Shown: positions 3,284 to 23,970, numbered from the stretch's first letter. The stretch is DNA of 64,000 nucleotides from Deltaproteobacteria bacterium (GCA_020632665.1 JACKFC010000015.1:21734-85733); one strand, 5' to 3'. Made by a program: numbers and translations. Notes: generated by a model not told the origin, from the sequence alone.

Positions 3284-5044
3284 CTAGGCGCCATCCTCAC
3301 GAGCCAGCGCGTCGACCTCTTGGGTGACGCGAAGACCGATGTACTCCGCCGGTCGAAACGGCGAGAGCCAGACGTCGACGTTGACCTGACCACGGTTCTG
3401 CGTGGTCGGGGTGTTGGTCTCGCTGTCGCAGCGGACCAGGAAGGCCTCCTGCTGCGAAGCGCCCTTCAGATAGCCCTGGCGCCAGAGCTGGTCGAGGAAG
3501 AACGACACGTCGCGCGCGATCGTCTGCCACAACCCCTGGTCGTTGTTCTCGAACACCACCCACTGCAGACCGACGTTCAGCGCGCGGGTGATGGCGACGA
3601 TGGTGCGTCGCACGTTGACGAACTGCAGCGGCCCATCGGCAGAAGCCGTGCGGGCACCCCAGACGCGGATACCGCGCTGGGCGAAGACTTGGCTGCAATT
3701 GATTCCTTCGGCGTTCAACATCGCGATGTCTTGCTGCTGCAAGAACAGTTCCAAGTCGACCACACCTTCGAGCTGTTCGTTGGCCGGGGCGCGATAAACA
3801 CCCTGGCTGTGGTCACAGCGGGCGTAGATGCCGGCGACGTGGCCCGAGGGGGGCACCGCCTTGCCCGTGGTGGAATTCGACGGGATCACGTAGGGATAGT
3901 AGAACGCAGCGAAGCTCGTGTTGAAGAGCCGGCGCCACTGCATCGCCCCGCGCGGGTTCTCGCCGGGCGGGATATCCAAGATCGCGAAGCGATCTTTTTT
4001 CTCCTCGCACTGGGTGACGATGGCCGACTGGACGATCTCGACGTCCTTGGGCGACTTGAAGCCGGCCGACTTCTCCAGGCACCAAGCGAGATCGGGCGCG
4101 ACGAGCAGGTCGATCTCCTCGAGATCGGCGATGCCGGCGAGGCCGTAGCGGTGCCCCGGGCCGAGATCCGCGCCGATGAAGTCTTCGGCGGTGACGGTGT
4201 AGAGGCCGTCCGTTCCGCCGTCGAGCCGCGTCGGCGGGCATTCGACGGGGAAGTTCTCTGGGATCGACGTGACCGCGTCGAGGTTGGCGACCTCGATCAA
4301 GCGCGATCGCTTGTTGATGACGCGCTCGGCGAATTGCGGCGACTGCCGGGCGAGGTTCAGGCCGCGGAAGACTTCGCGCTCGCTGTGGGTCTCGACCACG
4401 AGATCGAAGCCGACCGGCTCGACCAGGGTCGGGGCCATCGACTTGAACTCGGTCTCGAGCGGCTCTCGCTCGTTCCACCACAGCGTCCGCCCGTCGACCC
4501 GGGTCAGCACCCGGTAGGCGGCGTGGTCGTCGTCGTAGATCTTGACCAGGGTGCCACGGGCGAAGCCGTAGGTGCTCTTCACCATCACGCTGCTCTCGCC
4601 GGGGTGGCCGTCGACGGTGATGAAGGTCTGCACCTTGGCTTCAGGTCGCTGGATGTGGACGCGGATCGCGTTGCCCCACATGCCCTCGGAGATGGCCTGG
4701 ACGAGCAGGGTGTTGGCGCCGGCGGCGTCGCGCAGGCGAACCGAGGCGCGGGTGGCGATCTCGTTCCGGCCGCGCTCGAAGAGGTGGCAGATGCGGACGA
4801 CGTAGCACTCGCGTCCGCCGTTGAGGAAGAAGCCGTCGACCGCGGTCTCGAGGTAGCCGCCGACGTCGAGGCTACCGAAGCGCGAGCGGAAATCGGCGAT
4901 GCTGGTGACGCGCACCGGCTCGCTGGTCGGACCGCGCTCGGTCAGGCCGAGGAAGCACGGGACGCCGCTCTGCAGCAATCCGAGTGGGGCGGCGCGCGGC
5001 GCGTCGCGCTCGATGAAGACGCCAGGTGGCCGATTCATCACCAT
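3284..5044 (-). CDS. Contractile tail sheath protein, large paralog (586 aa)
   Basis: Sheath motifs: PGVFIE at the N-terminus, GIYARCDHSQGVYRAPAN, GIRVWGARTAS, FVNVRR, WVVFENNDQGLW, EAFLVRCDSETN. AGGAGGAG lies upstream of the ATG at 5044. Confidence 0.9.
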   Translation of the reverse strand: MVMNRPPGVFIERDAPRAAPLGLLQSGVPCFLGLTERGPTSEPVRVTSIADFRSRFGSLDVGGYLETAVDGFFLNGGRECYVVRICHLFERGRNEIATRASVRLRDAAGANTLLVQAISEGMWGNAIRVHIQRPEAKVQTFITVDGHPGESSVMVKSTYGFARGTLVKIYDDDHAAYRVLTRVDGRTLWWNEREPLETEFKSMAPTLVEPVGFDLVVETHSEREVFRGLNLARQSPQFAERVINKRSRLIEVANLDAVTSIPENFPVECPPTRLDGGTDGLYTVTAEDFIGADLGPGHRYGLAGIADLEEIDLLVAPDLAWCLEKSAGFKSPKDVEIVQSAIVTQCEEKKDRFAILDIPPGENPRGAMQWRRLFNTSFAAFYYPYVIPSNSTTGKAVPPSGHVAGIYARCDHSQGVYRAPANEQLEGVVDLELFLQQQDIAMLNAEGINCSQVFAQRGIRVWGARTASADGPLQFVNVRRTIVAITRALNVGLQWVVFENNDQGLWQTIARDVSFFLDQLWRQGYLKGASQQEAFLVRCDSETNTPTTQNRGQVNVDVWLSPFRPAEYIGLRVTQEVDALAREDGA

Positions 5045-7730: not shown

Positions 7731-10724
7731 CTACTTGCAACAGGTCGCGTAGCCCGGACAGCAGTCGCCCGCGGTCTGGCAGTAGCCGTCGCAGTAGCAA
7801 TCCTTGGTGCTGTAGATCAGGCAGACACCCGGGATGAGCTCGATGAGGCAAGGCCCGTTGATGGTGCCGGCAGGCGAGGACGAGCCGCACTTGCCGCCGC
7901 AGACGCTGCCGGCGCAGGTGTTGCACGCGTCGCCGCCCTGGCAGTCGTCGTCCTTGTTGTTGCACTGGATCTCGGTCGCGCCAGGATGCACGGCGCTGTC
8001 GCTGTCGGCACAGTCGCCGCTGTTCTTCGCGGTATACTTGCCGGTCGGCTTGCAGAGGACCTGGCTGGAGCCGGCCACGCCCCAGCCGTCGCCGTCGTTG
8101 TCGAGGTAGTAGGTGACCTTGCCTGGCGCGCTCTCGTCGGTCTGGCCGTTGCAGTTGTCGTCCTTGTCGTTGCAGCTCTCCGCGGCTCCGGGCTTGGTGG
8201 TCGCGGCGTTGTCGTCGCAGTCTCCGGATTGGGTCGCGGTGTAGCTGCCGAGCGCCTTGCACAGGCATTGGCTGGCACCGCTCTGGCCGAAGCCGTCCTT
8301 GTCGTTGTCGATGTAGTAGTCGGTGCAGCCGGCAGCGCCTTGCTCGTCGGTGACGCCGTTGCAGTTGTCGTCCTTGTTGTTGCAGGCCTCGGTCGCGCCG
8401 AGGTGGACGCCCTTGTCGTCGTCCTTGCAGTCGCCGGGCTTGAGCGCCGAGTGCGTGCCGTCGGCGGCGCAGAGGCATTTGGTCGGCGCGTAGGCGTCGC
8501 CGTAGCCGTCTTTGTCGGCGTCGACGAAGTAGGTATTGCAGCCCGCGGCACCGACGCCGTCGGTGCTGCCGTCGCAATCGTCGTCCTTGCCGTTGCAGCT
8601 CTCCTTGCCGGCCGGCGAGACGTTGGCCAGCGCGTCGTCGCAGTCGCCGGCCTTGGTCGCGGTGTAGGGGACCTTGGCCTTGCAGAGGCAGGCGGTGTCG
8701 CTGGGCTTGCCGTAGCCGTCTTGGTCGGCGTCGCCCCAGTAGATCGTGCAGCCCACCGCGTCGACCTCGTCGGTCACGGCGTCGCAGTCGTCGTCCTTGC
8801 CGTTGCAGACCTCGCCCTGCTTCGGCGAGGCGGCGGCGTCGGCGTCGTCGCAATCGCCGGCCTGGGTGACGACGTGGGTGGCGTCGGGCTTGCAGAGGCA
8901 GAGCTCGCTGCCGGGCTTGCCGTAGCCGTCCTTGTCGCCGTCGACGTAGTGCTTGCTGCAGCCGCTGGCGTCCTGCTCGTCGGTTTGCCCGTCGCAGTCG
9001 TCGTCGATCGTATTGCAGGACTCGGCGGCCTTCGGCGAGACGTCGGCGACCTTGTCGTCACAATCACCGGCTGCCGTCGCGGAGTAGGCGCCGGTGGGGG
9101 CACAGAGGCATTGCGCCAGCGTCGCGTCGCCGTAGCCGTCCTTGTCGCCGTCGAAGTAGAGCTTGGTGCAGCCGACCGCGTCTTGTTCGTCGGTCTGCCC
9201 GTCGCATTCGTCGTCTTTGCCGTTGCAGGACTCGGTTGCCGCCGGATGCACGCTCTTGTCGCCGTCGTCGCAATCACCGGCGATGAGGACCGGGAACGCT
9301 GCCGTCGGCTTGCACAGGCATGCGTTCTTGCTGCCGTCGCCGGCGCCGTCGAGATCGACGTCGGCGTAGGCGGTTTGGCAGCCCAGGGCGTCCTGTTCGT
9401 CGGTCTGGCCGTCGCAGTCGTCGTCCTTGCCGTTGCAGACCTCGGTCGCCGAGGGCGCGATCGAAAGGTCGAGCGGGGCGCAGTCCGCGGCGTCGAGCGC
9501 GCCGTCGTTGTCGTCGTCGGGGTCGACGCAATCGGCGAGGCCGTCGCTGTCGGTATCGGTGAAGCCCTCGTCGGTCTGGCCGTCGCAGTCGTCGTCCTGG
9601 CCGTTGCAGGCCTCGGCGGCCGGGGTCGCCGCCGAGCAGAGCAGCACGGCGCCGTCGCAGCTCGTGGTGCCGGGGCAGCTGCCGAAGGTATTGCTCTGCT
9701 GGCACGGCTGGCCGCTCAACGCCTCGTCGGTCTGGCCGTCGCAATCGTCGTCCTGGCCGTTGCAGAGCTCGGCGGCGGGGGCCTTCGCGTCGCAGCCCGC
9801 ACTGAGACCGTCGCAGGTCGTCGCGCCGGTGCAGGCGCCGAATTCGTTGCTCTGCTGGCAGGGCTGGCCGCTGAGGCCCTCGTCGGTCTGGCCGTCGCAG
9901 TCGTCGTCTTGGTCGTTGCAGACCTCCGCGATCGGGGTCATCGCGTTGCAGCCGGTCAGGCCGTCGATCGCGCACTTCCGCTGGCCGAGGCAGGTGCCGG
10001 CGTCGTTGCTGACGCTGCAGGTGGTGCTGTCGCCCGCGGCGATCGCGGCGGGGGAGCAGGTGCAGTCGGCGTCCTTGCGCACGCATTGCTTCGCCGCGCC
10101 TTGTTGCCCCTGCGCCAGCTCGCAGGCGTAGCCGCTGGGACAGTCCGCGCTCTCGATGCAGCCGGCGCCGCAGAAGCCGCCGCCCGCGCCGGTCTGCACG
10201 CAGAGGGCGTCTTTGGCCAGGTCGTCGCAGAAGGCGTCGGTCTCGCAGGGGCGGCAGAGCGCTTTGAGCTTGGAGACGCAGATGAAGACGGTGTCGCTGC
10301 CGGGGGCGGACTCGCAGGTCCAGCCGGTGGGGCAGCACTCGATGCAGGTCCGCGAGCAGCGCTTGCCGTCGGGGCTGTCGACGCACCAACTCGAGTCGCA
10401 GTCCGAAGCCTGCTCGCACGCCGCGCCGGGCTCGCCGGGGGCCGGATTGGCGGGGAAATCGCAGCCGTTGCCGGACTCGCCGGTGTCGACGTCGGGGCTG
10501 CCGTCGACCGCCGTCGCCGCGTCGACCGGGCCGGCGCCGGCGTCGCTGGTCGGTTTCGCGTCGTCGCTGCCGAAGCCGACGTCGAAGCCGAAGAGCACGT
10601 CGGAGCCGCCGCCCGCTTGGCCTGCGCCCTGGGTCGCGGTCGGGCCGGAGTCGCTGCAGCCGACGATCGCGACGGCGAGGAGGAGCGAGGCCACGACGCT
10701 GCGGCAAGGAAGAGATGCGGTCAC
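7731..10724 (-). CDS. Secreted lipoprotein with ~11 MopE-type putative metal-binding Cys repeats, plus EGF-like and thrombospondin-type-3-like segments
   Basis: GTG at 10724 with GGAGG 6 nt upstream. Lipobox LLLAVAIVGC. The motif GDCDD..(P)..E.CNG.DDDCDGQTDE is repeated about 11 times. One DTDSDGLADCVDPDDDNDG Ca-binding-like stretch is present. The C-terminus is Cys-rich. Confidence 0.85.
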   Translation of the reverse strand: MTASLPCRSVVASLLLAVAIVGCSDSGPTATQGAGQAGGGSDVLFGFDVGFGSDDAKPTSDAGAGPVDAATAVDGSPDVDTGESGNGCDFPANPAPGEPGAACEQASDCDSSWCVDSPDGKRCSRTCIECCPTGWTCESAPGSDTVFICVSKLKALCRPCETDAFCDDLAKDALCVQTGAGGGFCGAGCIESADCPSGYACELAQGQQGAAKQCVRKDADCTCSPAAIAAGDSTTCSVSNDAGTCLGQRKCAIDGLTGCNAMTPIAEVCNDQDDDCDGQTDEGLSGQPCQQSNEFGACTGATTCDGLSAGCDAKAPAAELCNGQDDDCDGQTDEALSGQPCQQSNTFGSCPGTTSCDGAVLLCSAATPAAEACNGQDDDCDGQTDEGFTDTDSDGLADCVDPDDDNDGALDAADCAPLDLSIAPSATEVCNGKDDDCDGQTDEQDALGCQTAYADVDLDGAGDGSKNACLCKPTAAFPVLIAGDCDDGDKSVHPAATESCNGKDDECDGQTDEQDAVGCTKLYFDGDKDGYGDATLAQCLCAPTGAYSATAAGDCDDKVADVSPKAAESCNTIDDDCDGQTDEQDASGCSKHYVDGDKDGYGKPGSELCLCKPDATHVVTQAGDCDDADAAASPKQGEVCNGKDDDCDAVTDEVDAVGCTIYWGDADQDGYGKPSDTACLCKAKVPYTATKAGDCDDALANVSPAGKESCNGKDDDCDGSTDGVGAAGCNTYFVDADKDGYGDAYAPTKCLCAADGTHSALKPGDCKDDDKGVHLGATEACNNKDDNCNGVTDEQGAAGCTDYYIDNDKDGFGQSGASQCLCKALGSYTATQSGDCDDNAATTKPGAAESCNDKDDNCNGQTDESAPGKVTYYLDNDGDGWGVAGSSQVLCKPTGKYTAKNSGDCADSDSAVHPGATEIQCNNKDDDCQGGDACNTCAGSVCGGKCGSSSPAGTINGPCLIELIPGVCLIYSTKDCYCDGYCQTAGDCCPGYATCCK
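7920..9930 (-). repeat. Tandem coding repeats (~190-bp period) encoding the MopE-like modules
   Basis: The CNGxDDDCDGxTDE codon blocks recur through this span of the lipoprotein gene. Confidence 0.8.
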
Positions 10725-10846
10725 GTGGGCCTCCGCGGCAGCCCGAAACGACGGGCTCCGTCGCCTGCCATCATGGCAAGACCGCAGCGAAGATCCAGAC
10801 AATCACGGCGTCGAAGGGTCGGTCGGCCCCGCCGCGGCAGCGGAAA

Positions 10847-13973: not shown

Positions 13974-14007
13974 GGCGCCAACCCCGCGAGGAGATTGGCG
14001 CCTTCTT
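13974..14007 (+). terminator. Hairpin plus T-rich tail downstream of the kinase gene, abutting attL
   Basis: GGCGCCAA (13974-13981) pairs with TTGGCGCC (13995-14002), followed by TTCTT. In the uninterrupted locus it would sit back-to-back with the tRNA-Asp 3' end. Confidence 0.4.
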
Positions 14008-14031
14008 GGCGGAGTGGACGGGACTTGAACC
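14006..14031. repeat. attL core: orphan copy of the tRNA-Asp 3' end
   Basis: TTGGCGGAGTGGACGGGACTTGAACC is identical to 29685-29710. The sequences diverge immediately beyond it. Confidence 0.85.
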
Positions 14032-14138: not shown

Positions 14139-14474
14139 ATGCGGCTCCTTCACATCGTCATCGCCGAGGCCGAGAACGCGCCTTGTCCCGCTGATCCCCT
14201 GGCGGCCGTCGCCGAGGCCGTGCTCGAACTGGTCGACACCGCGAGGGGCGACGAGCAAAGCTTCGCAGCGGCAACGCTGCTCATGCAGCTCCCTGCGGCG
14301 CGTGCCCGCCTTGACGCGATGTGGCAAGACCACGACCGGCGCCGGAAGGTCTGCATCGGCGCTTATCAGCTGATCGTCGCTGCCGACCAGCTCCGCCTCG
14401 CGCATCGACTACCGCCGCGCCAGGCAGCCATGATGGAGGCGCTCCGCGCCGCGGCCGAGCGGGCAGATGGCTAG
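14139..14474 (+). CDS. Hypothetical protein (111 aa)
   Basis: GGAGG 6 nt upstream of the ATG and high GC3. No motif recognised. Confidence 0.55.
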   Translation: MRLLHIVIAEAENAPCPADPLAAVAEAVLELVDTARGDEQSFAAATLLMQLPAARARLDAMWQDHDRRRKVCIGAYQLIVAADQLRLAHRLPPRQAAMMEALRAAAERADG

Positions 14475-14499: not shown

Positions 14500-14935
14500 G
14501 AGCCGCATCCGCCGCATCGGCGATGCGTCCGACCTGCATCCGTCGGATGCAGGCGACATGCTTGCAGTTGCGCATTCACGCATCGCCGGATGCGCGCACC
14601 AGGCACGCATCGAGACGCATCCGCGGGTCGCATTCGCCTGCATGTCACGCCGCATCCGGACGCATTCTGCGCATCGCGGATCGGCCGAAGACGTGATCAC
14701 GGGCGATCGCGCCCGAAATCAGTCCCGCTCGGCCCGCATACCGTCCGCATCAGCCATGCATCCCGGCGATGCGCGGAGGATGCTCGCGGTTGCGCATTCA
14801 CGCATCACCGAATGCACGCAACAAGCCCGCATCGAGACGCATCCGCGGGTCGCATTCGGAGGCTTCGAATGTCGCATCGGTCCGCATCAGCGACGCATCG
14901 ACGGTCTCAAGTTTTTTGCTCTTTCGTTTCAATGG
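14500..14935. promoter_or_regulatory. Iteron array plus AT-rich patch (candidate replication origin or regulatory array)
   Basis: 17 exact CGCATC/GATGCG hexamers and at least 9 one-mismatch variants in about 400 bp. Two 70-bp imperfect direct repeats (14567-14636 and 14789-14858). Palindromes CTGCATCCGTCGGATGCAG and CGCATCGCCGGATGCG. An AT-rich stretch at 14907-14933 lies just upstream of a wHTH gene. Confidence 0.5.
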
Positions 14936-15011: not shown

Positions 15012-15815
15012 ATGAGCGCGACCTTCCACCAAATGATGCCGATCGACTCGTTCTTCGACCAGATGGTCGAGAACGGGTCGAGCCGCACCCGCGGAATGCT
15101 CTGGATGGTCTTCAGCATCATCAAGAACGACGCTCACCAGAAGACCGGCAACGCCGGCGTCCGCTCTGCCCGCTGGCTGGCGGGTCGCGCCGGTATCCAT
15201 GTCAGCACGTTCTGGCGTGCGGTCGCCAAGCTGACGGAGGCTGGCTGGCTGCGCCGCGAGCCGACCTGGAGCTGCGTCGACTACGGGATGCGCGGCCCGA
15301 ATCGATGGTGGGTGCCGGCAATGGAGGCCGGCCGTCCCGTGGAGCTGTTCGGGGAGGTAGCTGAGTCGACGCCGGCTGCCGAGCCTCCCGCTGCACCGGT
15401 GGCAGGTCCTGCCGGACCGCGAGCCGTGGATGCGTTCTTCCGCGACCCTCTGGCCAGCTTCGACGCTCAGGCTCCGGCGACGAGACGGACCCAGGAGTTG
15501 CCGAGTCGCGCTGAGCTGTCACTCCTGGGTACCTATCGCAGTGGCGAGTCGGTCGAGAAGTACGAGCGCAACCGCTGGGACCGCATCCTCGGCACCAGCA
15601 AGATCGACCCCGCGGACCGCAAGTCGCTTCGGAGCGCAACGGTCCTGCGCCAAGTTGGCCGCTCCGCCCGTTCCGACGGCCTGACCGAGTACGTGGTCGA
15701 GGTCCCAGAGAACCTGGTCCCCGTCGCTGAGCGCTGTTGGAGTTCAGTGCTCGAGCACGCGCGAGAGAGCAGCATCGCGCTAGTTCTCTATCGCGCCCAG
15801 CCGCCACCCGGCTAG
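15012..15815 (+). CDS. Winged-helix DNA-binding protein (candidate replication initiator or regulator)
   Basis: ARWLAGRAGIHVSTFWRAVAKLTEAGWLRRE is an HTH/wHTH motif. GC3 jumps from about 60% to about 88% at the ATG at 15012, so the track start at 14769 is rejected. Confidence 0.65.
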   Translation: MSATFHQMMPIDSFFDQMVENGSSRTRGMLWMVFSIIKNDAHQKTGNAGVRSARWLAGRAGIHVSTFWRAVAKLTEAGWLRREPTWSCVDYGMRGPNRWWVPAMEAGRPVELFGEVAESTPAAEPPAAPVAGPAGPRAVDAFFRDPLASFDAQAPATRRTQELPSRAELSLLGTYRSGESVEKYERNRWDRILGTSKIDPADRKSLRSATVLRQVGRSARSDGLTEYVVEVPENLVPVAERCWSSVLEHARESSIALVLYRAQPPPG

Positions 15816-16238
15816 CACCAATCCTTCCCAGCACGACAATCGCGAGGGCCACCGGCTCATGGGCCGGTGTGTCCTCTGTTCGCATTTTTGGGCCGAGAAC
15901 GGCTTCGCGCTGGCGCGACGGTCCCTCTGCCGTCGGCGCTGGCTGTGCTCGAGCCGTCGCAGTCGGCCGGGACCGACGCGTTCTGCAGAATCCTCAATTA
16001 TTTCCGGTGTCGCGTATCAAGCACCACGTTGTCGCTGATCAGCATCGACACCTGTCGCAAGTGCGCACCGGCGGGTGCCGCGCAGCAGCGAGACATGATC
16101 AGAGTGTTTTCAAAGTCTTCTACAGATGAATTTCAGAACCGCCCGCTCCGCGGTCGCGCCCTCCGGGCGGGTGAAACACTGGCAATGGGTGACTGCACGG
16201 CTGGCTTGCGGGACGATCGCGATCGCGAGGAGGCGCGG

Positions 16239-18119: not shown

Positions 18120-19241
18120 ATGTTCGAGAAGCAGATCATGAAGGCCGAGCAGGCGGGCAACTCCGCGATCTACGTCCGGCCGCCCCCGCGCCTGTATGGC
18201 CATCGCGCCGACCGCCTCTGCGTCGAGCTCCGGCTGACGTTCAACAACGGCACTGGTGCTCTTGCCGACCTGACCGAGGCGTTCTTCACCGGCAGCAAGC
18301 TGAAGTGGAACTACCGCGACAATTCGCCCTTCATCGTCGACACGCCGCTGGCGCCCGCCGAGTGGGCCAACCAGATCATGCAGCGACGCTGGGCCGGCGG
18401 GCTGGTGCAGTGCGACGGCGGCATCCAGGTGGCCATCGGCGCCACCGAGACCCACAGCTTCTACCTCGACATCGACCTGGCGATCCCGCTCGCCGAGCGT
18501 CCGGTCGACTTCTCGCAGGACATCTCGGAGCTGGGTGCGCTCACCTTCACGCCCGACATGTCGAACGAGGCCGCGTCGCTCTCGCTCACCAACGTCGAGG
18601 TCATCGTCACGGCGTACGGCAAGCGCACGGACGCCCTGTACAGCGGCTCGCGCCTGCGGATCAGCACGCAGAACAGCCTCGCGCCGATCAGCAGCGACGA
18701 GCTGGCCCTCGAGGGCAAGCTCATCGCGCTCTTCATCTTCACCAAGGACGGGACGGTGCCCATCGCGTCGACCGTGCCGCAGGTCAAGGTCGGCAACCAG
18801 CAGCTGCTCGAGACCGTCGATACCAATACCCTCGACGTCGTCAAGCACCTCGGTGCGTCGCGCTGGACTCTCTTCCCCCAGCGTCCGAGCGACGGCGCCC
18901 CGAGCGCCGACTTCCCCGACGACATCGGCCACCTGGTGATGCCGGAGGAGGGCTTCCGGATCAGTGCGCTGCCGGGCAACAAGGGCGACGTCGTCAACGT
19001 CTCCTACGCCACCGCGCCTTCCGCCAGCACCGGCAAGCACGTCTATGTGCTGGTCGAGCTCGTCCCGCGCCAGACCTGCTTCAAGCGCGAGATCCCGGGC
19101 GCGGTGGAGATGAAGCGCGAGGACTTCGAGCGCTACGTCGAGTACCCGACCATCGGGGCCGGGATCCTCACCGACGAGCTGAAGGACGTCCTGCCGCAGG
19201 TCATCCGGACGCCGCAGGTGCTCCAGCGCATCGGCTGCTGA
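18120..19241 (+). CDS. Hypothetical protein, 373 aa (candidate major capsid protein, unverified)
   Basis: GAGGAG upstream and high GC3. No TM segment. Many short hydrophobic-alternating (beta-like) segments. It is the largest soluble protein of the structural block. Confidence 0.7.
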   Translation: MFEKQIMKAEQAGNSAIYVRPPPRLYGHRADRLCVELRLTFNNGTGALADLTEAFFTGSKLKWNYRDNSPFIVDTPLAPAEWANQIMQRRWAGGLVQCDGGIQVAIGATETHSFYLDIDLAIPLAERPVDFSQDISELGALTFTPDMSNEAASLSLTNVEVIVTAYGKRTDALYSGSRLRISTQNSLAPISSDELALEGKLIALFIFTKDGTVPIASTVPQVKVGNQQLLETVDTNTLDVVKHLGASRWTLFPQRPSDGAPSADFPDDIGHLVMPEEGFRISALPGNKGDVVNVSYATAPSASTGKHVYVLVELVPRQTCFKREIPGAVEMKREDFERYVEYPTIGAGILTDELKDVLPQVIRTPQVLQRIGC

Positions 19242-21596: not shown

Positions 21597-21952
21597 TGCC
21601 GACCGCCAACCCATGGCCGATCGACGACGCGCGCCACAACGTGTGGCAGCTCTGCCGTGAGCTCGCCAACCTCGAGGGCCACCTCGACGACCCCGGCCGC
21701 AACTGCGTCAAGTGCATCACCAAGCACCTCGCTTGCATCGAGGGCCTGGCGCAAGAGGGCATCGGCCTGGACCACAGCGCCGCGCTGCAGCCGCTGTTCC
21801 GGCAGGTCATCGACGCCGTCGCTTCGGCTGGCTGGGCGCCAGGTGTCCCCCCGGAGGCGGCGCGCGAGCTGATCCGCCAGGCGCGACGTGCGTGTTGCAC
21901 AGCGCAGCTCCGCAACGCCGGCGCTCCCAACATCCTCCCGAGGAGATCCTGA
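21593..21952 (+). CDS. Hypothetical protein (119 aa, Cys-containing)
   Basis: ATGA overlap upstream and TGATG overlap with the muramidase gene downstream. Confidence 0.55.
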   Translation: MMPTANPWPIDDARHNVWQLCRELANLEGHLDDPGRNCVKCITKHLACIEGLAQEGIGLDHSAALQPLFRQVIDAVASAGWAPGVPPEAARELIRQARRACCTAQLRNAGAPNILPRRS

Positions 21953-22803
21953 TGAGCAAGCAACCCGTCGCCGGCTCACTGCTGGGCATCGACGTCTCGC
22001 ATTGGCAAGGCAAGATCGACTGGAACGCCGTCGCCGGCAGCTCCACCCCCTGGGGCGCCGTCGAATTTGCCTACGCCAAGGCGAGCACCGGCAAGGGCGG
22101 TCGCGACAAGCGCTTCGTCGAGAACGCGGTTGCCGCGGCGAAGGCCGGCCTGCCGTTCGGCGCCTACCACTGGCTCAAGCCGGGGCAGTATCTGCCCACC
22201 GAAGAGGCCGCCAACTTCGTCGCAGCGATCCAAGCCGCCCGCGCCGCCGGCGCCAAGGTCGAGCTCGCGCCGATGATCGACCTCGAGGACAAACCGGCGT
22301 CGACGATGGGCAACGATCCGCAGGCCGTCGTCGACTACGCCGACGAATTCGCCAAGGCGGTCAAGGCGGCACTCGGCCAGACGCCGATCTTGTACGTCGG
22401 CAGCAACTACGCGAAGCAGTACATGGGCACCAAGGTGCCGCCGGGCCTGCCGATCTGGGTGCCGCAGTACAACAAGCCGAGCTGCAACTACGATCCCACG
22501 GTCGCGGGCCCGAACAAGCTCAACGCCGCCACCGCGAACTGGGCGGTCTGGCAGTACTGCTCGAAGGGCAAGATCCCGGGCATCAGCGGCGACGTCGACC
22601 TGAACGCGCTGCGCAGCGACCGCATCGACGCCGTCGGCCTCAAGGGTCGACGCGTCGCCCTGCCGTCGACGACCCGCGGCGGCGCAGGCGCAGACGACAA
22701 GAAGAAGGCAGACGACGCCGGCGGCAGCACCACGCTCTACGCCGTCGGGGGCGCGCTGCTGCTGCTGATCATCATCATCATCCTCGCGCTGCAGGCGGGG
22801 TAG
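21952..22803 (+). CDS. GH25 muramidase (lysozyme) with a C-terminal transmembrane anchor
   Basis: GIDVSHWQGKIDWNAV, FAYAKASTGKGG..D..F, GAYHW, DLED. AGGAG upstream. C-terminal LYAVGGALLLLIIIIILALQAG. Confidence 0.9.
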   Translation: MSKQPVAGSLLGIDVSHWQGKIDWNAVAGSSTPWGAVEFAYAKASTGKGGRDKRFVENAVAAAKAGLPFGAYHWLKPGQYLPTEEAANFVAAIQAARAAGAKVELAPMIDLEDKPASTMGNDPQAVVDYADEFAKAVKAALGQTPILYVGSNYAKQYMGTKVPPGLPIWVPQYNKPSCNYDPTVAGPNKLNAATANWAVWQYCSKGKIPGISGDVDLNALRSDRIDAVGLKGRRVALPSTTRGGAGADDKKKADDAGGSTTLYAVGGALLLLIIIIILALQAG

Positions 22804-23592: not shown

Positions 23593-23696
23593 TGGACCCG
23601 CGCCTCGAGCTCGCCGTCGTGCTGCTCGTGGCGCTCGGTGTCGGCGCCGGCGCTGGCTTCGCGGCCGTCGTCGGCGAGCTGCTGGGCTGGTGGTGA
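23592..23696 (+). CDS. Very small TM peptide (34 aa)
   Basis: TGATG coupling to the previous gene. MDPRLELAVVLLVALGVGAGAGFAAVVGELLGWW. Confidence 0.4.
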   Translation: MDPRLELAVVLLVALGVGAGAGFAAVVGELLGWW

Positions 23697-23718
23697 GCGC
23701 CTGCAGGAGGCCCGGGCC

Positions 23719-23970
23719 GTGAGCGTTTTCTGGACAGAGAGGGCTGGCAAGCAACTCGCGGCTATTCAGCGCAGTGACGCGAAGCTCGCGGGCCAAGTGA
23801 AGCTCGCCGTCGAGAAGCTCCACGATACTGGACACGGCGACGTGAAGATGCTCAAGGGGGCGCCCGGCGAGTTTCGCGTGCGGGTCCGGAAGTATCGGAT
23901 CAAGGGGTACTGGGACGGCGACGTGCTCGTGGTCCTCGAGGTCGGCCACCGGAGCTCGATCTACCGCTAG
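23719..23970 (+). CDS. RelE/ParE-family toxin
   Basis: GTG at 23719 with GGAGG 8 nt upstream. The pattern ...KLHDTGHGDVKMLKGAPGEFRVRVRKYRIKGYWDGDVLVVLEVGHRSSIY fits the RelE/ParE fold signature. Confidence 0.75.
   Translation: MSVFWTERAGKQLAAIQRSDAKLAGQVKLAVEKLHDTGHGDVKMLKGAPGEFRVRVRKYRIKGYWDGDVLVVLEVGHRSSIYR

Follow-up and report, generated by a model that had tools for sequence, protein, structure and literature searches.

A phased array of a short CGCATC-type motif beside a winged-helix gene as a candidate replication origin in a rare, probably tailless provirus

Within a provirus integrated in a deltaproteobacterial chromosome, a gene for a winged-helix protein is preceded by a non-random, non-coding array of one short motif (array A), and a second array of the same motif (array B), absent from the original prediction, lies 10.8 kb from the first. 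We consider that array A, the AT-rich patch next to it and the winged-helix gene may together constitute an ori-rep cassette, in which both arrays would serve as platforms for the winged-helix protein and array B would act as a second site; the probability that we attach to this reading is about 0.45. If so, the module is plausibly an unusual variant of a familiar type of origin, the repeat array paired with a winged-helix protein, carried by a rare provirus. All positions below and in Table 1 are those of the window, by which we mean the whole 64-kb stretch of DNA that was analysed, and the winged-helix gene is referred to as rep for brevity.

Table 1. Features of the provirus and of its two motif arrays, in order along the window
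Feature	Position	Strand	Basis
attL, 26-bp copy of the tRNA-Asp 3' end	14006..14031	.	exact repeat
Small helical ORF	14139-14474		
Array A: 17 exact and 10 one-mismatch aCGCATc sites	14504..14899	.	counts, repeat alignment, codon-position GC
AT-rich patch, candidate rep promoter and/or DNA-unwinding element	14907..14933	+	AT ranking
Gene for 267-aa winged-helix protein (rep)	15012..15815	+	conservation, structure model, profile searches
Hairpin with 14-bp stem and T run, terminator candidate	15845..15890	+	alignment with L001, folding
Conserved non-coding block	16093..16172	+	alignment with L001, AT ranking
Gene for zinc-finger and transmembrane protein	16239-17222		
Gene for FtsK/HerA-like P-loop ATPase	17219-17827		
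Gene for Cro/CI-type HTH protein	17815-18054		
Gene for 373-aa beta-rich protein	18120-19241		
Several membrane protein genes	between the 18120-19241 gene and the GH25 endolysin gene		
GH25 endolysin gene	21712-22803		
ParE/RelE toxin gene, downstream of the endolysin gene	23638-23970		
Array B: 2.5 x 105 bp, 16 GCAT cores	25669..25952	+	motif count, phasing, codon-position GC
Gene for 136-aa protein with two tandem HTH_17 domains (excisionase/MerR-like)	26111..26521	-	domain matches
Tyrosine integrase gene; frame runs into attR core	28510..29727	+	family match
attR core inside tRNA-Asp (29686-29762, minus strand)	29685..29710	.	exact repeat, tRNA search

The motif was first recognised through the density of a single hexamer, and the counts on which that recognition was based are borne out. 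CGCATC or its complement GATGCG occurs exactly 17 times between the first and last sites of array A, the number originally given, where ~0.5 would be expected. The 64-kb window as a whole contains 106 copies, against a mean of 101.6 after dinucleotide shuffling, and the rate outside the two arrays is 0.49 per 400 bp, in agreement with the earlier estimate of fewer than one; at this outside rate, the Poisson probability of 17 hexamers in 396 bp is ~9e-21. The check on motif abundance that had been proposed, carried out within the window, thus places the hexamer at chance density except in the two arrays, and neither the rest of the element nor the flanking chromosome within the window shows any further enrichment. 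At least nine one-mismatch copies had also been claimed, and ten are present with the GCAT core intact (CGCATT five times, TGCATC three times, CGCATA and AGCATC once each) against 1.4 expected. Array A holds 31 GCAT cores in all, 23 of them on the + strand, with a site spacing of 8-17 bp overall and typically 9-13 bp, and alignment of all 47 cores from arrays A and B yields aCGCATc(s) as the consensus, in which about seven positions are informative.

In its architecture, array A is essentially one 222-bp duplication. The direct repeat predicted at this offset is present and longer than had been proposed, with 14525-14665 and 14747-14887 being 76% identical and a core of ~70 bp being ~90% identical. 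Both of the predicted palindromes were recovered as well: CGCATC-GCCG-GATGCG at 14579-14594, and one formerly placed at about 14534-14552 that reads CCTGCATCCG-T-CGGATGCAGG at 14533-14553 with perfect 10-bp arms. A third, CGCATCG-G-CGATGCG, lies at ~14513-14527, and the three inverted site pairs sit at the left end of the array, whose right edge is 113 bp upstream of the rep ATG. Codon-position GC is flat in every frame of array A, and array B is likewise non-coding by this measure, which rules out coding repeats for both; a known RNA in the arrays is also ruled out, an Rfam search giving two tRNAs and nothing else. Separately, a 12-mer, GTGATCACGGGC, which includes the palindrome TGATCA, occurs between the two halves of array A at 14693-14704 and is identical at positions 2-13 of a related contig (L001, described below); on sequence grounds, it may be a separate protein-binding site.

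Array B is the more regular of the two. It consists of 2.5 tandem units of 105 bp that are 88% identical, and each unit opens with four sites at intervals of 12, 9 and 12 bp, which creates a sub-period of 21 bp. Its 16 GCAT cores, 11 of which are exact CGCATC, all lie on the + strand, and a 10.5-bp phase is kept strictly throughout (spectral power 11.8 of a maximum of 16, a value that none of 500 random placements attained). In array A, periodicity at 10.5 and 11.75 bp is moderate but significant (power 8.0, reached by 0.2% of random placements), and the repeat lengths of 105 and 222 bp are both near-multiples of 10.5. Array B has no AT-rich neighbour. It is located between two convergent genes, whose stop codons are at 25565 and 26111; the second of these genes, for the double-HTH_17 protein, has its 3' end 160 bp away from the array. 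Because both flanking genes end there, array B has no obvious promoter to control. With an array of equal quality beside another DNA-binding gene, array A is one of two candidate sites for "the" origin, and the winged-helix protein one of two candidate binders.

The only relative with usable flanking DNA is L001, a 1974-bp contig that encodes a winged-helix homologue 46% identical to the rep product. Eight CGCAT copies, all on the + strand and 4/8 of them exact CGCATC, occur in the 328 bp upstream of this homologue, and more are found downstream of it. When the two halves of array A are compared, motif columns are 88% identical and other columns 56% (p = 6e-7); for the window against L001, identity is 66% in motif columns and 47% in spacers. 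The test is partly circular, since the columns were defined from the same sequences that are compared. These observations bear on the notion that the arrays are functionless local amplifications of a short sequence, generated by slippage or duplication. Recent-looking internal duplications do exist in both (222 bp at 76%, 105 bp at 88%), but the presence of one motif at two unlinked loci and in a diverged relative, the conservation of motif columns while spacers drift, and the maintenance of helical phasing make such an explanation extremely unlikely.

The immediate surroundings of rep supply further candidate cis elements. The stretch at 14907-14933, which had been called conspicuously AT-rich, has a GC content of 0.30 and ranks second in AT-richness among the 27-mers of the 64-kb window (quantile 1.1e-4). 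First in this ranking is 16107-16133, on the opposite side of rep, such that the two most AT-rich spots of the window flank the winged-helix gene. The patch is situated between the last three phased sites of array A (14873-14899) and the start codon, and is loosely conserved in L001. Of the earlier designation as a DNA-unwinding element, the AT-richness holds and the unwinding role is a candidate one, the patch being 27 bp long, at a promoter position and weakly conserved in L001; identity as the rep promoter is at least as likely. Scans with sigma-70 promoter and intrinsic-terminator consensus sequences gave no match in either region covered, and the AT-rich patch in particular has no sigma-70 match. 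Just after the rep stop codon, alignment and folding identify a conserved hairpin with a 14-bp stem followed by a T run, in which a stem pair that is A-T in the window is G-T in L001. This hairpin is, judging from its sequence, likely the terminator of a monocistronic rep transcript, and with such a terminator behind it rep looks monocistronic and the AT-rich patch becomes the natural place for its promoter. Farther downstream, within the intergenic region 15816-16238, a non-coding block of ~80 bp that contains the most AT-rich 27-mer is nearly invariant with respect to L001, whereas the neighbouring proteins are just 41-46% identical. The block is a candidate late-operon promoter or alternative unwinding site and, being better conserved, appears from the alignment to be a better candidate for a sequence-specific cis element than the patch at 14907-14933.

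The same surroundings can be viewed in another way, namely that the arrays are not an origin and instead represent operator, roadblock or architectural sites for a regulator of transcription or recombination, an account that we regard as possible yet doubtful. In one form of it, the winged-helix protein could be a pure autoregulator or a switch between the rep and late promoters. The last three sites of array A abut the patch that is the likeliest rep promoter, and rep looks to be a single-gene unit with its own terminator, both as this form would have it; the ~30 sites spread over ~400 bp, however, far exceed what an operator needs.

As to the protein itself, the original prediction of a winged helix-turn-helix gene at 15012 was correct: the gene is real, its product has a winged-helix N-terminus, and the start codon and N-terminal sequence are conserved in the relative. 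In an AlphaFold model of low confidence (pLDDT 54), the protein is laid out as a winged helix at residues ~24-100, of canonical topology, followed by a disordered Pro/Ala-rich linker and a C-terminal alpha/beta domain. Foldseek retrieves generic MarR/SlyA-type winged helices (E > 0.04), and sequence and fold searches of the PDB return generic winged helices solely (MarR/SlyA, Rrf2, Z-alpha). Pfam and NCBIfam give no match above threshold, including to any curated Rep family such as Rep_3 or RepA. Profile searches are somewhat more suggestive: the protein matches phrog_8102, "replication initiation protein", at E = 0.0046, and one family member (P0002) matches phrog_270, "replication initiation protein", over residues 4-104 at E = 8e-6 and, more weakly, phrog_428, the O-like phrog_391 and the DnaD-like phrog_186, while another (P0006) reaches the Pfam gathering score for HTH_36. 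These initiator-family matches are weak and span the generic winged-helix part only; the best profile matches of the family are, at the sequence level, biased towards initiators. What survives of the claim to an initiator gene is the winged helix and the initiator-leaning family profiles, but not membership of a recognised Rep family. HTH_36 is the helix-turn-helix domain of several plasmid Rep proteins that have iteron-like oriV repeats beside rep (PMC3832669), and winged-helix domains are common in plasmid, viral and chromosomal initiators (PMC2777425). Across the three known family members, neither the wing (TWSC..YGMRGPNRW) nor residues T66, W68 and R69 of the predicted recognition helix vary, a pattern compatible with an unchanged target sequence. 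Profile searches of the element's ORFs detected no other recognisable replication protein or candidate initiator, and no helicase, primase or polymerase gene is recognisable in any of them.

The candidate cassette belongs to a 15.7-kb element integrated in tRNA-Asp, array A lying between the two copies of the exact 26-bp direct repeat of the tRNA 3' end that bound the element. The integrase shows no specific kinship to any GenBank phage integrase. A hairpin at ~13975-14005 beside attL has the look of the tRNA's own former terminator, moved away from it when the element inserted. Outside the element, a long minus-strand ORF of the host flank (7731-10802) includes a region, 8001-10000, in which AT skew is strongly negative (-0.44, -0.31). 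At the head of the presumed late operon is a gene for a protein that combines an N-terminal C2H2-like zinc finger (CxxC...HxxxxHC), conserved in L001, with an extended Pro/Ala-rich stretch and a transmembrane segment. The product of the next gene has Walker A and B motifs and matches the packaging, Zot and HerA families. For the 373-aa protein, the top ~20 Foldseek matches are nearly all capsid proteins of PRD1 (P3), PR772 and STIV, at E ~1e-5 and TM ~0.25 from a poor model (pLDDT 44). The combination of ATPase, capsid-like fold and endolysin points to a tailless provirus of the PRD1/PM2 lineage, and the element is, on these structural models, probably a tailless double-jelly-roll provirus. 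Proviruses of this lineage carry very diverse replication modules (PMC5894146).

The lineage to which the element belongs is extremely rare. Its capsid-like and winged-helix proteins have three or four relatives apiece in protein collections, no relatives were found in GTDB genomes, IMG/VR, GenBank phages or PLSDB plasmids (phages and plasmids being searched by protein and by DNA), and a metagenome scan with Logan look-ups gave contigs of 1.4-3.9 kb only. Contigs L124, L125, L126 and L128, from Logan runs SRR12358675 and SRR12358676, are 100% identical to the element; such identical contigs terminate within array B (25843, 25763), within array A (~14635) and, at 29717, 7 bp beyond the attR core. 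A coexistence of integrated and excised forms could account for the break at att. L001 derives from one of these two runs, which means that two related elements with the same motif may coexist. When IMG/VR was scanned for a pattern of three spaced CGCATC copies, the matches were simple or coding tandem repeats, apart from a single unrelated array. That array, at ~4200-4420 of a 4.5-kb viral contig (L081, IMGVR_UViG_3300024520_003659), is an intergenic CGCATCA array with direct and inverted copies that directly follows a gene with a winged-helix-looking C-terminus, a layout like that of array A in a different element.

The gene next to array B introduces an alternative candidate binder of the motif, the double-HTH_17 protein. 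It matches both phrog_66, "excisionase and transcriptional regulator" (E = 4e-11), and the small-terminase HTH family phrog_57 (E = 7e-8). The former match belongs with a second form of the regulatory account, in which this protein could act like P2 Cox or 186 Apl and in which array B, situated between the ends of convergent transcription units, would insulate the late transcript from the lysogeny transcript. Phasing, a predominant orientation and a head-to-tail order of the copies are features also of Cox/Apl/Xis filaments, and the 21-bp sub-period with its two sites would suit a protein with two tandem HTH domains. Yet array B is without a promoter to act on, the divergent promoter region of the HTH_17 gene holds a different palindrome and no CGCATC, the sole comparative link is to the winged-helix gene, and 470 bp or more separate the arrays from the att core, a distance at which they are not classical arm or Xis sites; on that distance, integrase arm or Xis sites were rejected as an identity for the arrays. 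The different palindrome is a perfect GTCAAG-TCG-CTTGAC at 26582-26596, unique in the window and located between the HTH_17 gene and the integrase-side operon, and its sequence suggests that it is likely the operator for a different regulator.

The second match, to phrog_57, is relevant to the proposal that the arrays are centromere-like or packaging-recognition sites, which we think unlikely. A small adaptor would coat the phased repeats to build a segrosome-like complex, and this complex would either partition the circle or mark the genome for the ATPase. Array B is placed at the end of an operon, like sopC and parS, and the element encodes an FtsK/HerA-like ATPase that could be the partner; moreover, arrays of a short 8-bp motif on pMF1 are bound by a small ParB (PMC3235114). 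Family searches of the element, however, found no partition NTPase of the ParA, ParM or TubZ type, the ORFs upstream of array B (24361-25152 and 25149-25565) have neither a Walker motif nor a family match, and an integrating element hardly needs partition. A partition locus was rejected for want of an NTPase gene. For packaging, the difficulty is that this virus lineage is not known to use any sequence-specific packaging signal. A more specific version, in which the phased arrays would be the genome-recognition signal of a double-jelly-roll virus and a winged-helix or HTH adaptor would hand the circle to the packaging ATPase, is very unlikely in our estimation; by analogy, such a handover would be likened to KOPS/FtsK-gamma or clt/TraB.

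To return to the ori-rep cassette, the mechanism that we propose begins with arrays A and B as binding sites for one element-encoded, sequence-specific protein, most likely the winged-helix product of rep. The 15.7-kb provirus would leave tRNA-Asp as a circle, and the winged-helix protein would then cooperatively occupy the ~27-31 aCGCATc sites of array A. With sites about one helical turn apart and on one face of the DNA, a large nucleoprotein complex would arise beside the AT-rich patch, where it would exert autoregulation on the neighbouring rep promoter and also separate the DNA strands, allowing the host replisome to load. Array B, with its 16 sites in three 105-bp units, would be another cis site, brought together with array A by protein-mediated looping, and its role could be that of an enhancer or of a copy-control ("handcuffing") locus, for which P4 crr, P1 incA and the R6K iteron clusters are the models. 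On the excised circle, array B is 4.2 kb from array A across attP.

How far the element conforms to an iteron origin can be judged feature by feature. The originally proposed layout stands insofar as a non-random, non-coding array lies beside a winged-helix gene. Clustered direct repeats beside the candidate rep gene are present (17 exact and 10 near copies in 400 bp). Both the shortness of the motif and its arrangement in two arrays set it apart from classical iterons. In place of a 17-22 bp unit repeated two helical turns apart, there is a core of ~7 bp at a spacing of 8-17 bp, and the regular 21-bp sub-period with two sites each is confined to array B. The rep product falls outside the recognised Rep family (Rep_3 with WH1-WH2), and the inverted copies are at the end of array A far from the promoter, unlike the operators of iteron plasmids. 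A search for TTRTCCACA with at most one mismatch found no DnaA box in the element, and a DnaA-dependent origin is disfavoured for this reason. Given the unit size and the missing Rep family, DnaA box and primase-helicase, the element departs from iteron and P4-type origins in several of the features by which they are classified.

Should the origin interpretation be true, the element would exemplify a replicon with ~45 copies of a 7-bp site in two phased arrays and an orphan winged-helix reader, in a provirus lineage for whose core proteins databases of billions of proteins contain no more than 3-4 relatives. It would also offer a possible minimal replicon for a high-GC host group that is short of plasmid tools, as well as an entry into the replication of tailless, membrane-containing temperate viruses without a polymerase of their own. 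If the arrays are instead regulatory or packaging sites, they would still represent a clean protein-DNA recognition system, and a packaging signal would be the first sequence-specific one described for the double-jelly-roll lineage.

Four groups of known systems invite comparison. Iteron-type theta origins of plasmids and prophage-plasmids are exemplified by P1 oriR with incC/incA, F ori2, R6K and pPS10, in which classical iterons of 17-22 bp are present in 3-9 copies at ~22 bp spacing. Like these origins, and like the HTH_36-type Rep modules of alphaproteobacterial plasmids (PMC3832669), the element has clustered sites beside a winged-helix gene; it further shares with iteron origins the inverted and direct copies and an adjacent AT-rich stretch, and with the P1 incA and R6K clusters the placement of a second repeat cluster elsewhere on the replicon. 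Unlike them, its unit is ~7 bp at 9-13 bp spacing in ~30 and 16 copies, its protein stands outside the curated Rep families, it has no DnaA box, its AT-rich patch separates the repeats from the gene, and its role in replication is a predicted one.

Centromere arrays of type Ib/II partition systems form another group, of which R1 parC is an example. On the Myxococcus plasmid pMF1, the loci ItA-ItF are composed of AGATGTCT units bound by ParB (PMC3235114). As in pMF1 and R1 parC, several short-motif arrays are positioned upstream or downstream of operons, and the cooperative coating by a small DNA-binding protein that characterises those systems is proposed likewise for the arrays described here; in contrast to them, the element has no partition NTPase gene and integrates. 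The P2 Cox and 186 Apl arrays, finally, consist of direct repeats, phased at ~10.5 bp and placed at two separate loci, to which a small HTH excisionase/regulator binds. The element resembles them in having ~10.5-bp phased direct repeats at two separate loci of a temperate element, and differs in that the Cox and Apl arrays lie at switch promoters and attP, whereas its own arrays are clear of the att core and of the HTH_17 divergent promoter (26522-26595).

The remaining system is that of satellite phage P4, whose ori and crr were reportedly the subject of work by Flensburg and Calendar in 1987 and Ziegelin et al. in 1993. In P4, a short 8-bp site occurs at both ori and crr, and one locus is made of direct repeats of ~100-120 bp. 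P4 alpha is a large primase-helicase, whereas no primase or helicase domain was found in any element ORF; in addition, the P4 motif is unrelated and the copy number is far higher in the element. Common to both are a short site at two loci kilobases apart on a small tRNA-integrating element, and one locus of ~100-bp repeats with several sites each, here array B with its 105-bp units. Recognition by a winged helix would also be shared, the origin-binding domain of alpha being a winged helix (cited in PMC2777425) and the element's being that of a candidate binder. By analogy, then, an origin formed by the two arrays and the winged-helix protein would especially resemble P4 ori/crr.
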